A stretch of 32,000 nucleotides of DNA, taken from positions 30,001 through 62,000 of the forward strand of contig NQJD01000001.1 of assembly GCA_004284765.1 (NCBI GenBank), given 5' to 3'. A program made the translations under genes and the position numbers. The notes under the pieces are model-generated. The model ran no database searches, was not told the DNA's origin, and worked only from the letters and a program-made list of their open reading frames with translations. Below, in pieces: positions 1,417 to 4,862 of the stretch. This stretch comes from Candidatus Electronema aureum (lineage in GTDB: Bacteria > Desulfobacterota > Desulfobulbia > Desulfobulbales > Desulfobulbaceae). Positions within the stretch are counted from its first letter, which is position 1. Every line of letters begins with the position of its first letter.

Positions 1417-1495
1417 TTTTTTTCTTTGCAAGAAACATAGCTAAACCCGCTGCCTTCTTTCATAGGTGAGCGTTTTTTCCTTGTCCTTAAATAGA

Positions 1496-1516
1496 CAAGG
1501 CAGCAGTTTCAGGAAC
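1496..1516. repeat. left copy of a perfect 21-nt direct repeat, CAAGGCAGCAGTTTCAGGAAC (att-like)
   Basis: The identical 21-mer recurs at 3042-3062 in the same orientation. The left copy overlaps the 3' arm of a small hairpin (ccttgtc-N8-gacaagg, 1479-1500) and lies where the AT-rich DNA ends. Confidence 0.85.
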
Positions 1517-1582
1517 AATTGACAACCTATCTACAGCAGGATACAATACACTGAGCTGCATTCCTGTTTTTTCGGAGTCCGG

Positions 1583-1661
1583 TAGGTTGGGGTGAGGCAC
1601 AAACCCCGACAATCATAAGGCGAGTCGGACATGTCGGGGTTCTCCGCCCACCCGCAACCTA
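1583..1661. repeat. long imperfect inverted repeat or structured element (candidate ncRNA, ssDNA hairpin or palindromic element)
   Basis: The left arm taggttggggtgaggcacaaaccccgac (1583-1610) pairs with the right arm gtcggggttctccgcccacccgcaaccta (1633-1661). This gives an outer ~12-bp stem, an internal loop, an inner 9-bp stem (aaccccgac/gtcggggtt) and a 22-nt apical loop. The loop contains a third gtcgg copy that allows an alternative pairing. Confidence 0.6.
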
Positions 1662-1687
1662 TGAGCTAACAAACAGCAGAGATTTTT

Positions 1688-1825: not shown

Positions 1826-1850
1826 TTCGCAAAAAATCCGCATGTATCAA
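1822..1850 (+). promoter_or_regulatory. candidate sigma70 promoter for the 1907 ORF (TTGATT-N17-TATCAA)
   Basis: ttgatt at 1822-1827, a 17-nt spacer, tatcaa at 1845-1850. It directly abuts the last tandem repeat unit. AGGAGG at 1893-1898 sits 8 nt (1899-1906) before the ATG at 1907. Confidence 0.4.
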
Positions 1851-1906
1851 TGTATGTATTCATCTCTTTCCGTAAAGAATAATCATTTCTTATCAGGAGG
1901 TTCCCC

Positions 1907-2953
1907 ATGCCGGTTGGATACTATGTCAGAGAGAACAAACTCACCACGCCCCCTTCGTACAGCTGTCAGACAACTGCGGAAGACACACTTGGCTATGATG
2001 AAATCGCGGAACTTATTCATACGCTGAATCCGTCAATAACCGCTGCCCAGGTCAAGACGGTTTTGCAGAACTTCCAGCAGGTTGTCACGGAGCAGATTGC
2101 TGACGGCAAGTTCGTCAAATTAAAGAATTTCGTCTCCTTCATGCCGCGCCTCCAAGTGCGTTTGGACCTTCCGACCGATGACATTCCGCCTGATGCGGTG
2201 AAAGTGGCGGCCAAGATTCCGAGGCAGTTCAACCGGGCTGTCCAGAACATAGCTACCTATGAAAGGCTTGGTTATCCGTCCAAGGCCCCTGAAGTGGTCA
2301 TCGGGTATGAAACAAATACAAAGTACCCTCGGTTCATCAGGGAAGGATATCCGTTCCGCCTATCTGGGAAATTTCTTGGTTTTGATGTTGATGATGAGGA
2401 TTTAGGAATCTTCTTGGTTGATGCCAATGACAATGAGATCGAGCAGGACAAGATTGCTCTCAATGACCCGTCAAACGTGATCATCACTGCTGATTTCGGC
2501 GAAGCACCTGCTGCGTCTCCGAATGTCGAGAAGACCATCCTCTGCCGGAACAGATACACCTCGAACGGCACCATCCGGGAGGGATCCTACGAGCATGTGA
2601 GAAGTATGAATTTTATCGCGGCTGATCAGCTTGAGATGTTTGTTGCCGGTGCTGACGCGACAGGTCCTGTCCAGGCTGTGAAGCACAATGCGCCAGCTGA
2701 GGATTGCCGCGTTGAGGCGATATTGAAGCCTGACAATACGATCACATTGGCAATCGGCCCGTACATCGGTGAAATGGGGCCTCCGGTCACTGTGCCTCCC
2801 GAAGGCGGCAACATTGTCCTGCCCGGCCTTTCTGTTGATGTCAGACTGCATGTTGCCAATGCCGCAGCTTATGCTGCTCTGCGTAATTTTCTGCTGGCAC
2901 ATGGACGATATGTTCTGGAGGTCTGCAATATGGCTCAATTCGGCGGTGCCTGA
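1907..2953 (+). CDS. HU-like (HU_HIG-type) DNA-binding N-terminal domain fused to a DUF4469-like Ig-fold region, plus a ~120-aa unrecognised C-terminal extension
   Basis: Strong SD and ATG. The N-terminus (YYVRENKLTTPPSYSCQ...DEIAELI...ITAAQVKTVLQNFQQVVTEQIADGKFVKLKNF) matches my recollection of the Bacteroidota 'putative histone-like DNA-binding protein' family. The middle segment (PFRLSGKFLGFDVDDEDLGIFLVDANDNE...NDPSNVIITADF) resembles the DUF4469 pattern. This is recall only, not a search. Confidence 0.6.
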   Translation: MPVGYYVRENKLTTPPSYSCQTTAEDTLGYDEIAELIHTLNPSITAAQVKTVLQNFQQVVTEQIADGKFVKLKNFVSFMPRLQVRLDLPTDDIPPDAVKVAAKIPRQFNRAVQNIATYERLGYPSKAPEVVIGYETNTKYPRFIREGYPFRLSGKFLGFDVDDEDLGIFLVDANDNEIEQDKIALNDPSNVIITADFGEAPAASPNVEKTILCRNRYTSNGTIREGSYEHVRSMNFIAADQLEMFVAGADATGPVQAVKHNAPAEDCRVEAILKPDNTITLAIGPYIGEMGPPVTVPPEGGNIVLPGLSVDVRLHVANAAAYAALRNFLLAHGRYVLEVCNMAQFGGA

Positions 2954-3041
2954 TCTTGACGGCTTCTGGATTTGGCATGAGGCTGTTGCCTTTCACCCGA
3001 ACGAGATAGGCGGGATATTGGAAGAGATTGCCCGGAATGGG

Positions 3042-3062
3042 CAAGGCAGCAGTTTCAGGAAC
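3042..3062. repeat. right copy of the perfect 21-nt direct repeat, CAAGGCAGCAGTTTCAGGAAC (att-like)
   Basis: Identical to 1496-1516. It lies 88 nt after the stop of the 1907 ORF and 50 nt upstream of the favoured GTG start of the dgt-like gene. It would fall inside the coding sequence if the TTG at 3028 or the ATG at 3037 were the true start. Confidence 0.85.
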
Positions 3063-3111
3063 TCTTGCAGGATTTCCCTGTCATCCCTCCGATACGTGCT
3101 ACCTGAATACT

Positions 3112-4176
3112 GTGAACATTCGTCGCCAGTTAGAAGAACAGGAAAAACTTATCCTCTCACCTCATGCCTGTTTCAGTAGCAGATCGCGAGGGAGGTTGCG
3201 CGATGAGTCGCCCTGTGACCTCCGCACTGCCTTTCAACGCGACCGCGACCGCATCATTCACTCCAAAACCTTCCGCCGCCTCAAGCACAAGACTCAAGTT
3301 TTTTTAGCTCCAACCGGTGACCACTACCGAACCCGCTTAACCCATGTCCTTGAAGTTTCTCAAATTGCTCGCACCATTGCGGTCTGCCTACATTTGAACG
3401 AGTATCTCACTGAGGCCATTGCCCTTGGTCACGATCTCGGCCACACGCCTTTTGGCCATGCCGGTGAGTATAGCCTTAATCGCCTGCATCCGGGCGGCTT
3501 TCGACATTATATTCAGAGCCTACGGGTGGTTGATTTTCTCGAAAATCACGGTCAAGGGCTGAATTTGAGCTGGGAGGTACGGAACGGCATTGTCAAGCAT
3601 TCCAAGGGCTATCGGGACATTCTGCCTGACGACTCGCGGGAGCTGCCCGCAACGCTGGAGGGCCAAGCGGTGCGGGTAGCGGATATTATCGCCTACCTTA
3701 ATCACGACATGGATGACGCGCTGCGAGCCGAAATGATTAAAGAAAGCGATTTACCTATTCACTTGCGGCGGGTGGTGGGCGACCGGCCCGATCTTCGCAT
3801 TGCCGCCATGATGCGTGACCTGATCACAGAAAGCCTACGGGCCAACGAAGGTCGTCTCCGTCTCAGCCCGATGATGCAGGAGGTCATCTGCGGAATGCGC
3901 ACTTTCCTCTACGACAACGTTTATCGTAATCGGCTCGTACACAATGAGTTTGAAAAAGCACAAAATGTCATCCGCGAGCTGTACCTGTTTTTCTTGGAGC
4001 ATGAATTTCCAATCAGCCCAGAGCTGGTTTGCGCAAAACGTAAACCGCCCGTAGATGGCAAGGAAGAGAAACAGCTGCATCGATTAGTCTGCGATTTCAT
4101 TGCAGGAATGACAGACCGCTATGCCTTAGACCTATATAGTCAAATTTTCCTACCTAAACCTTGGTCGGTGATGTAG
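3112..4176 (+). CDS. dgt: dGTPase-like deoxyguanosinetriphosphate triphosphohydrolase family protein (HD domain)
   Basis: Motifs FQRDRDRIIHSKTFRRLKHKTQVF, RLTHVLEVSQIAR, HDLGHTPFGH and the C-terminal DFIAGMTDRYA are typical of the family. The start is placed at the in-frame GTG at 3112 (VNIRRQLEEQEKLILSP...), matching usual family N-termini. The ORF-track start at 3028 (TTG) and the ATG at 3037 remain possible. Confidence 0.85.
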   Translation: MNIRRQLEEQEKLILSPHACFSSRSRGRLRDESPCDLRTAFQRDRDRIIHSKTFRRLKHKTQVFLAPTGDHYRTRLTHVLEVSQIARTIAVCLHLNEYLTEAIALGHDLGHTPFGHAGEYSLNRLHPGGFRHYIQSLRVVDFLENHGQGLNLSWEVRNGIVKHSKGYRDILPDDSRELPATLEGQAVRVADIIAYLNHDMDDALRAEMIKESDLPIHLRRVVGDRPDLRIAAMMRDLITESLRANEGRLRLSPMMQEVICGMRTFLYDNVYRNRLVHNEFEKAQNVIRELYLFFLEHEFPISPELVCAKRKPPVDGKEEKQLHRLVCDFIAGMTDRYALDLYSQIFLPKPWSVM

Positions 4177-4241: not shown

Positions 4242-4862
4242 TCAGTTTCCTGGAGGCACACTTTGTTCAGCTGGACTAACAGGCTTATTTTCCTGAATCT
4301 GGGCCTGCTGCTGCATTTCTTCTGCCGCAGGAGGAACTACTTTTTCCAGTTCAGGCGCGGGAGATAGCTGCACAGTCGGGGTCTGCTCTCGTTGTAGGTA
4401 GGAAAAAGGGTTCCAGCCGGTGTAAAGGAAAAATCCGGCAACGAATAGCCCAATGAGCATCAGCATCATAACTGCCAAAGTGACTGCCGAAACATGGGCA
4501 GGCTCGGCCAGCTGTTTGGCCGACATCCCACTGCCTTTACTGCCTTTTTGCCCGTCTATTTGCTGGTGTTGTTCACGTTCAACTATGAATCTTCTTGCCA
4601 CCTGATTCCCGTCTATGCCAAGAAGATTCGCGTAAATCGCTACTTGGCCACGAATGAATGTATTAGCCGGTAAGTCGGTATAATTCTCATGTTCAATGGC
4701 GACCAGATTGGAAGCGGAAATATTGGTCTCTTTCGCAGCATCTCGGATGCTGATTCCTTTTTCCTTGCGCAGCTGCCGCAGCATCTCCCCCACGCTTACT
4801 ACCTGATGCTCTCCGCTGACAGCTGCCTGTTTGTCCGTGCCACTCTGTTCTTGTCTGTTCAT
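4242..4862 (-). CDS. RodZ-like helix-turn-helix membrane protein (HTH, single TM helix, Pro/Gln-rich tail)
   Basis: HTH segment LRQLRKEKGISIRDAAKETNISASNLVAIEHENYTDLPANTFIRGQVAIYANLLG. One TM helix, VTLAVMMLMLIGLFVAGFFLY. Low-complexity C-terminus. Confidence 0.65.
   Translation of the reverse strand: MNRQEQSGTDKQAAVSGEHQVVSVGEMLRQLRKEKGISIRDAAKETNISASNLVAIEHENYTDLPANTFIRGQVAIYANLLGIDGNQVARRFIVEREQHQQIDGQKGSKGSGMSAKQLAEPAHVSAVTLAVMMLMLIGLFVAGFFLYTGWNPFSYLQREQTPTVQLSPAPELEKVVPPAAEEMQQQAQIQENKPVSPAEQSVPPGN

Follow-up and report, generated by a model that had tools for sequence, protein, structure and literature searches.

A three-domain branch of the HU-HIG protein family, multiplied in cable bacteria and associated with upstream repeat arrays

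Background

To our knowledge, the HU-HIG proteins are a large family of no known function that has so far been discussed for the Bacteroidota only and is represented by one orphan crystal structure, 4FMR. That structure is of BVU_2165 from Bacteroides vulgatus, a member of the subclade in which an HU-fold head with an N-terminal extension is followed by an immunoglobulin-like (Ig) domain. Cable bacteria are multicellular and form electrically conductive filaments, and their biology is poorly understood genetically. Here we describe a gene of the cable bacterium Candidatus Electronema aureum, at positions 1907-2953 of a 32,000-nucleotide stretch of contig NQJD01000001.1 (referred to below as the window), the product of which carries the same two domains followed by a third, C-terminal domain (CTD). 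The gene and its relatives are designated the HU-Ig-CTD family.

The HU-HIG clade has been treated as a Bacteroidetes radiation by Burroughs, Kaur, Zhang and Aravind in 2017 (PMC5499826), the only paper on these proteins that our literature search returned. The search yielded no paper on DUF4469, on BVU_2165, or on cable bacteria with histone-like proteins, and in the main text of two papers on cable-bacteria genomics the family does not appear.

Beyond the order of the first two domains, the window protein and the Ig-fused HU-HIG subclade have in common a lineage-specific expansion, fast divergence, solitary genes outside conserved operons and a patchy distribution among close species. The BVU_2165-type proteins, however, are only about 230-265 residues long, whereas the window protein has a third domain of 114 residues with no recognisable fold. 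The hosts also differ, being cable bacteria (Desulfobulbaceae) here and Bacteroidota for the HU-HIG subclade, and the genes of the window family have private phased arrays 5' of their promoters, which may be a further difference. The canonical HU, IHF and Hbb proteins (PF00216) are like the head of the window protein in having two helices, a three-stranded sheet and a C-terminal helix, with a probably dimeric body; unlike them, the window protein lacks basic proline-tipped arms, is acidic, is 3.5 times longer and is multicopy. What appears to be new is a three-domain branch with a third domain of no known fold, massively and exclusively multiplied in cable bacteria, in which the gene seems to travel between species together with its upstream array.

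Results

Gene and domain organization

The HU-Ig-CTD open reading frame (ORF) opens at an ATG that is preceded by a canonical Shine-Dalgarno sequence, and its G+C content (51.8%) is that of the host genome (51.9%); on both points a preliminary description, made by reading the sequence without database searches, proved accurate. When the gene is compared with a 93%-identical ortholog in G003, a genome of the same genus, the ratio of nonsynonymous to synonymous divergence (dN/dS) is 0.17, so the ORF is a functional gene under purifying selection. The gene and the parts of its product are as follows.

1895-1900, forward strand: Shine-Dalgarno sequence AGGAGG, 6 nt 5' of the ATG, from direct reading of the sequence.
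1907-2953, forward strand: HU-Ig-CTD gene, 348 amino acids plus stop codon, from the ORF list, Pfam, the AlphaFold2 model and dN/dS.
1907-1987, forward strand: residues 1-27, N-terminal extension, a predicted beta-hairpin (strands 2-10 and 17-22 in the model) within the HU-HIG match.
1988-2275, forward strand: residues 28-123, HU-fold core consisting of helices 1 and 2, a beta-sheet whose short arm (83-97) is acidic, and helix 3.
2276-2608, forward strand: residues 124-234, Ig-like domain of the IPT/TIG, E-set type, corresponding to DUF4469, from PF14734 and VIA-align.
2609-2950, forward strand: residues 235-348, beta-rich CTD, from a separate model, with a C-terminal strand-helix-strand unit bearing a conserved Y-G-R-x-x-x-E-V.

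The preliminary description had likened the first ~90 residues to HU_HIG and residues ~150-205 to the Ig-like segment of DUF4469, and both assignments were borne out by profile searches and by the fold of the model. In Pfam-A, four profiles scored over their curated cut-offs, three of them being PF18291 (HU-HIG) at residues 1-99 with 31.4 bits (cut-off 26.2), PF14848 (HU-DNA_bdg) with 30.3 bits (cut-off 30) and PF14734 (DUF4469) at residues 144-194 with 26.8 bits (cut-off 22.6). The DUF4469 match of the window protein spans only positions 16-69 of the 101 in the profile; in several paralogs it spans positions 1-92. The fourth, PF00216 (Bac_DNA_binding), was borderline at 22.5 bits against a cut-off of 22.4, and TIGR01201 (HU_rel of NCBIfam, which describes long HU relatives of Bacteroides and Porphyromonas) reached 24.7 bits, well under its cut-off of 68.6. 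No Pfam-A profile matched the protein past about residue 200.

Predicted structure and likeness to BVU_2165

An AlphaFold2 model of the whole protein, built on an alignment of 74 relatives, had a mean predicted local distance difference test score (pLDDT) of 94.5 and a predicted template modelling score (pTM) of 0.73. Residues 1-234 of this model superpose on BVU_2165 with a Foldseek E of 8e-13, and VIA-align gave Z 13.6 for 4FMR across 216 residues. Furthermore, a subfamily profile searched against PDB sequences found 4FMR with an E of 7.8e-8 over positions 26-220. These results show that the window protein and the HU-HIG/DUF4469 proteins of the BVU_2165 type are homologous.

The N-terminal extension bears the family motif N-x-L-T-x-P-P-S-Y, in which N10, L12 and T13 are almost invariant in the family alignment. 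For the HU part (model residues 25-119), the VIA-align neighbours were Hbb (2np2, Z 7.9), HU (2ndp, Z 7.7) and IHF (1ihf, Z 7.5), and Foldseek gave a template modelling score of 0.82 against the HU structure 6n2l. The Ig part (124-234) aligned at Z 8-10.5, with a root-mean-square deviation (rmsd) of 2.1-2.9 A over 80-95 residues and an identity of 5-16%, to 3hrp, 1qhp, the C-terminal Rel domains of TonEBP, NFAT and NF-kB, EBF, and SGBP-B, a Bacteroides surface glycan-binding protein. The likeness to the IPT/TIG domains of Rel-family and EBF factors and of Bacteroides surface glycan-binding proteins is one of fold only, limited to residues 124-234, and holding this fold in common does not imply a common function.

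About 120 additional C-terminal residues had been noted in the preliminary description. Since the Ig domain spans residues 124-234 in the model, the extra part consists of residues 235-348 (114 amino acids); it is present as described, but is standard among the paralogs (see below) rather than special to the window gene. AlphaFold and Foldseek had been suggested as a check on this part of the protein, and when residues 198-348 were folded apart, the model was again of high confidence (pLDDT 94.6, pTM 0.85) and had no convincing PDB neighbour, the best Foldseek match having an E of 0.078. Among 48,161 representative chains, the best VIA-align neighbour was 9gb1, the outer domain of a phage tail sheath (Z 5.0, 91 residues, rmsd 3.4 A), followed by 3hxl (Z 4.8) and 4ut1 (Z 4.5); these outer domains of tail-sheath and FlgK/FlgL proteins all lie under the usual background best of 7-8 stated for the tool, and a second VIA-align run gave a best Z of 4.7. 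No convincing neighbour came from the viral structures of BFVD (best E 0.05), none was found in the ESM Atlas, and the CTD had no match in Pfam, NCBIfam, PHROGs or PADLOC. An origin of the CTD as an internal duplicate of the Ig domain was ruled out, there being no similarity between the two. On the evidence of the models, the CTD is predicted to be a confidently folded domain without a recognisable fold.

Copy number and host range

The window belongs to a 2.76-Mb assembly of 73 contigs, in which a six-frame search found 18 matches to the family. From these genomic matches we extracted 16 paralogs, of which 12 are intact, 348-365 amino acids long, and align across all three domains including a C-terminal Y-G-R-x-V-D-V-L. 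The other four, at C69 (413-1100), C3 (27195-28196), C17 (11818-12687) and C18 (5307-6197), are frameshifted or cut off; in each of them the family sequence resumes downstream in another frame, so about a quarter of the paralogs are decaying or mis-assembled. The window copy is an outlier at 22-30% identity (about 26%) to its paralogs, which are mutually ~40-60% identical as judged by eye from the alignment.

Each of eight genomes of the same genus contained 6-34 matches, or 8-34 copies, and 13 matches were found in G015, a genome of the second carrier genus; the same six-frame search gave none in the 30 further genera covered from this taxonomic family and order. In the family-level sample, two of 16 genera carry the HU-Ig-CTD genes, with matches in all eight genomes of one (g1) and in eight of the 12 genomes of the other (g8); genomes with species names identify the carriers as the cable-bacterial genera Candidatus Electronema and Candidatus Electrothrix. 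A search of 300 other Desulfobacterota genomes gave no homolog, and the orthologs are not syntenic, which is the opposite of a widespread core gene in conserved context. The two cable-bacterial genera are thus the only Desulfobacterota in which the branch was found, and it occurs there as tens of divergent solitary copies.

The sulfate-reducer chromosome of the preliminary description is therefore that of a cable bacterium of the Desulfobulbaceae, which is no classical sulfate reducer, and with hosts in Candidatus Electronema and Candidatus Electrothrix the homolog lies outside the Bacteroidetes range in which the HU-HIG clade was defined. In keeping with the accompanying view that the fusion is typical of Bacteroidota, DUF4469 was matched among 14 control genomes in Bacteroides thetaiotaomicron only; the fusion is also multiplied in cable bacteria. 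Related clusters in the atlas belong to Spirochaetota, Bacteroidota and Thermodesulfobacteriota. The three-domain architecture is standard for the family and represents a lineage-specific expansion in cable bacteria, and we assign the window gene with high confidence to the Ig subclade of HU-HIG, as part of a three-domain branch from cable bacteria.

Subfamilies and fused forms

A phmmer search of 1.84 billion cluster representatives gave 230 matches at E <=0.001, 104 of them at E <=1e-10, which fell into three classes. Members of the first are full-length matches of ~340 amino acids with 30-50% identity, and those of the second, at ~230-250 amino acids, match residues 1-230 only. The third class comprises proteins of 500-880 amino acids in which RCC1 repeats, LRRs, PPC domains or DUF6242/EPTP propeller-like domains come after the whole 340-residue module.

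In a quick IQ-TREE analysis of the first 240 residues of 136 sequences, midpoint-rooted and supported by Shimodaira-Hasegawa-like approximate likelihood ratio test (SH-aLRT) values only, the short ~230-residue forms made up one clade (SH-aLRT 99), apart from all three-domain forms. The main-type paralogs of the window genome fell into a second clade (support 99), and the window copy into a third (support 97) together with 340-residue forms and all 31 long fused forms. The window copy thus appears to belong to a separate deep subfamily, in the company of the metagenomic RCC1, LRR and PPC fusions. Probe searches for the long fused forms found no match in genome contigs or viral contigs and RCC1-domain relatives only in metagenome contigs, and a homolog search restricted to longer proteins found none. 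Their amino-acid composition suggests that the long fused forms come from hosts with a lower G+C content than cable bacteria.

Upstream arrays and promoters

Directly 5' of the window gene lies an array of short repeats that ends in a candidate promoter and is itself preceded by a predicted RNA hairpin.

1688-1850 (approximate), forward strand: array of ~22-23-bp units with the core TCAAAAGG, directly 5' of the gene, from alignment with G003 and G015.
1834-1862, forward strand: candidate promoter TTGATT-N17-TATCAA at the array end, predicted from reading of the sequence.
1582-1662, forward strand: stable imperfect hairpin between an AT-rich segment and the array, from RNA folding.

The array is kept in the G003 and G015 orthologs, with a differing number of units, and the TTGATTCGCAAAAA part of the candidate promoter is conserved in both; a scan for consensus promoters did not call the site at 1834-1862. 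The arrangement recurs in the family, in that approximately 13 of the 16 paralogs have 3-6 copy-specific repeats or palindromes immediately 5' of a TTGACA-N17-TAnnnT promoter. A sister group at 44% identity has 23-bp arrays of its own, and there two 84%-identical Electronema proteins, from Candidatus Electronema sp. KV and from genome G002, have the array unit CACGAATGCnTGCATTTGA in common.

In layout these loci recall arrays of the iteron or centromere type, such as ParR/parC of plasmid R1 and Rep/iteron systems, where likewise 5-9 evenly phased units abut the promoter of the adjoining gene and are private to each locus. Unlike those systems, the HU-Ig-CTD loci have no ParM/ParA-type or Rep partner, are chromosomal and encode a protein of another fold, and the analogy, drawn from layout, is functional only.

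RNA folding of positions 1572-1672 gave -44 kcal/mol with a z of -3.85, and none of 200 shuffled sequences was as stable. G003 retains part of the hairpin at 1582-1662; that this hairpin might be a multicopy element was ruled out by search.

Probable exchange between species

DNA homology to the orthologous loci is limited to positions 1615-2957 for G003 and to 1684-2962 for G015, so that the segment held in common consists of the array plus the gene and ends a few bases 3' of the stop codon. The genes upstream of the window gene are syntenic with G003 and those downstream are not, and in G015, G002 and G001 the ortholog is surrounded by unrelated housekeeping genes. Synonymous divergence (dS) from G003 is 0.21 for the HU-Ig-CTD gene (0.047 for its CTD third), against 2.3 for the adjacent dGTPase-like gene and 1.6 for the upstream gene; from G015, the values are 0.61 for the HU-Ig-CTD gene and ~4, which is saturated, for the dGTPase-like gene. 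Because dS of the comparison genes is saturated, these ratios are lower bounds and not estimates.

The divergence from G003 is also uneven along the gene. Most 90-nt windows are 97-100% identical and those at 1997-2086 and 2177-2356 just 70-86%, and the 24 amino-acid differences cluster in residues 30-64 and 99-147, alongside synonymous differences, in a mosaic pattern. These comparisons suggest that the array-plus-gene unit has recently undergone exchange or conversion between cable-bacterial species. No integrase or transposase gene occurs near the window gene, and tblastn searches of phage and plasmid collections found no homolog.

Two of the orthologous genomes show additional irregularities. 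G003 has a second, partial copy of the window type (C54, 1488-2076), covering residues 157-348 at 95.6% nucleotide identity, and ~1 kb from it a 65-nt fragment of junction sequence from the full-length locus in that genome, which indicates a duplication or rearrangement at the locus. The Electrothrix ortholog in G015 (C1, near 818000; 85% identity) is frameshifted ~30 codons before its end, with the terminal motif in another frame, and may be a pseudogene or reflect an assembly error.

Possible functions of the HU-Ig-CTD proteins

The functional readings of the family given here are all predictions. The account that we favour, tentatively and as falling somewhat short of an even chance, is that the variable head of each protein reads the phased array of its own gene. 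The protein would dimerise through the HU head, as in 4FMR and HU, and the dimer would bind the phased ~23-bp array 5' of its own promoter through the variable surface of the head (helices 1-2, the N-terminal hairpin and helix 3), with no basic arms of the HU type. The conserved Ig domain and CTD would then join adjacent dimers into a higher-order complex controlling the expression of the gene itself, and array plus gene would be the unit exchanged between cable-bacterial species. The paralogs vary most in HU helices 1-2 (1.76 bits per column, compared with ~1.0 for the Ig domain and the CTD), which is the expected place of a specificity surface if the head reads arrays. A bolder extension, which we regard as distinctly unlikely, is that every HU-Ig-CTD gene and its private 23-bp array constitute a self-recognising, horizontally exchangeable nucleoprotein module with a programmable HU-fold specificity that dispenses with basic arms. 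Tens of mutually orthogonal copies could then serve as private chromosomal marks or switches, and the CTD might polymerise dimers or carry cargo, as the RCC1, LRR and PPC fusions suggest.

Several observations weigh against self-recognition of the arrays. The window protein is acidic (pI 4.97, net charge -12), as is its arm (residues 83-97; LDLPTDDIPPD; net charge -3, pI 4.05), and the HU-arm segment is acidic in nearly all paralogs, with a net charge of -2 to -6; a mildly basic character is confined to the N-terminal hairpin and the helix-3 region. An acidic protein with an acidic arm makes DNA wrapping of the classical HU type unlikely, which agrees with the argument drawn from 4FMR by Burroughs et al. 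(PMC5499826) that the Ig domain fills the DNA cleft; the same authors concluded that proteins of the HU-HIG clade are unlikely to be sequence-specific factors. Additionally, a Candidatus Electrothrix aarhusensis ortholog that is 80% identical over its full length to the KV protein has an unrelated array unit, CCTGACACTGGTCAGG. Either specificity depends on a few residues, or the arrays are read by something other than the neighbouring protein. Divergence between the KV and aarhusensis proteins is in excess in residues 1-27 and 67-97, with no excess in the CTD. The promoter and leader 3' of the arrays are conserved between orthologs with unrelated array units. Should the proteins nevertheless read their own arrays, the published view of the clade as one without sequence specificity would be overturned, and the system offers several handles on the role of the family: one cognate array per protein, pairs of 80-84% identity with the same or different arrays, and hypervariable HU helices 1-2.

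The main rival, rather unlikely in our estimation, is the published idea for the Bacteroidota HU-HIG proteins, namely that they act in conflict or as sensors, their domains recognising proteins or nucleic acids of invaders in an arms race and not reading the DNA, while the arrays serve another factor. The acidity of the protein and its arm, the occlusion of the cleft by the Ig domain and the unrelated array of the 80%-identical ortholog, as set out above, all fit this idea, as do the lineage-specific expansion with four of 16 copies frameshifted, the lack of synteny together with synonymous-site evidence of recent exchange, and metagenomic relatives that append domains typical of ligand recognition (RCC1, LRR, PPC or propeller) to the same 340-residue module. 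It leaves unexplained why each gene should have its own phased array at a fixed position before the promoter, and variation that peaks in the HU head instead of the Ig domain or CTD also speaks against it; moreover, neither the whole protein nor the CTD matches a PADLOC-DB 2.0 family at E up to 1, the phage and plasmid collections searched hold no homolog, and no conserved effector gene lies nearby. Another reading, quite improbable, has the arrays read by a different, shared or neighbouring factor, the HU-Ig-CTD protein being the regulated output with a role away from DNA, for example as a cytoplasmic scaffold or adaptor. Arrays that differ wholly between 80%-identical proteins, and an acidic product, would fit this, yet no second gene is consistently linked to the HU-Ig-CTD loci, and private arrays would need equally many private readers, when only the HU-Ig-CTD gene multiplies with the arrays.

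Two further readings start from the predicted folds. That the best, if weak, neighbours of the CTD (Z 5.0, 4.8 and 4.5) are outer domains of sheath and FlgK/FlgL proteins, and that surface glycan-binding proteins occur among the Ig-domain neighbours, might point to a structural or surface protein decorating a filament or a phage-like particle. We consider this very improbable: CTD scores of Z <=5 fall under the usual background of 7-8, no signal peptide was seen by inspection, the N-terminus being the conserved HU-HIG hairpin, phage, flagellar and secretion genes are absent from the vicinity, and neither phage genomes nor BFVD gave a match. An ordinary nucleoid-associated HU/IHF paralog that bends DNA non-specifically is hardly credible. 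The HU fold of the model and the PF00216 score, just above threshold, speak for such a protein; composition and architecture already contradict it, however, in a protein of 348 amino acids and three domains with a pI of 4.97 and an arm free of basic residues, which falls far below the TIGR01201 cut-off and exists in 16-18 divergent copies per genome.

Flanking repeat and surrounding DNA

The remaining features of the locus lie outside the array-plus-gene segment.

1490-1521, forward strand: left copy of a flanking direct repeat, overlapping a near-consensus promoter-like site at 1519-1547.
3036-3067, forward strand: right copy of the direct repeat, in a non-conserved spacer 5' of the dGTPase-like gene.
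3112-4176, forward strand: dGTPase-like HD/HD_assoc phosphohydrolase, an ordinary neighbour.
4242-4862, reverse strand: HTH_25 protein with a C-terminal membrane segment, resembling RodZ by eye, likewise an ordinary neighbour.

The preliminary description took the gene to be the only one of a repeat-bounded cassette. The repeat itself is real: its two copies are 32 nt long and 88% identical with a 21-nt exact core, patchy similarity extends across ~130 nt, and the chance expectation of a 21-nt exact repeat within 6 kb is estimated at ~4e-6. It is, however, no feature of the family. The two copies are the only ones in the genome, five relatives lack the repeat, among them the genome with the 93% ortholog, and each copy sits in sequence that relatives do not conserve, 80-165 bp outside the ortholog-shared segment. 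For these reasons the 21-nt repeat was rejected as the boundary of a family-wide mobile cassette, and we read it as a local rearrangement scar tied to the AT-rich insertion on the left and to the variable region before the dGTPase-like gene.

The promoter-like site at 1519-1547, TTGACA-N17-TACAAT (11/12), is ~360 nt 5' of the ATG; it has no conserved counterpart in G003 and resembles the promoters before the dGTPase-like gene in relatives. The AT-rich segment at 1-1615 extends ~220 bp to the left of the window and has 31-40% G+C against 52% for the genome. Its ORFs, a multi-pass membrane-like one ending at 786 and a Cys-rich one at 808-1416, are without a Pfam match. At the syntenic site in G003, the segment is absent and its flanks are 184 bp apart; it looks like an accessory insertion. 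The Cys-rich neighbour was rejected as a conserved partner of the HU-Ig-CTD gene, since G005 (88% identity) is the one other relative in which it was found, and it is unlinked there. A downstream PIN-type pair was likewise discarded as a conserved partner, since it follows only two of the 16 paralogs. These are the main-type paralogs at C60 (from 5182) and C2 (from 172054), each of which has the same small ORF downstream and, after it, an ORF resembling a PIN-domain toxin by eye; the two ORFs would be a toxin-antitoxin-like pair and no general partner of the family.

The dGTPase-like gene probably starts at a GTG at 3112, because homology to relatives begins there. A different, main-type HU-Ig-CTD paralog lies ~1 kb upstream of this gene in G001. 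Each of the five relatives examined has a different sequence in front of the dGTPase-like gene, which makes this region a variable spot that has repeatedly hosted HU-Ig-CTD genes.

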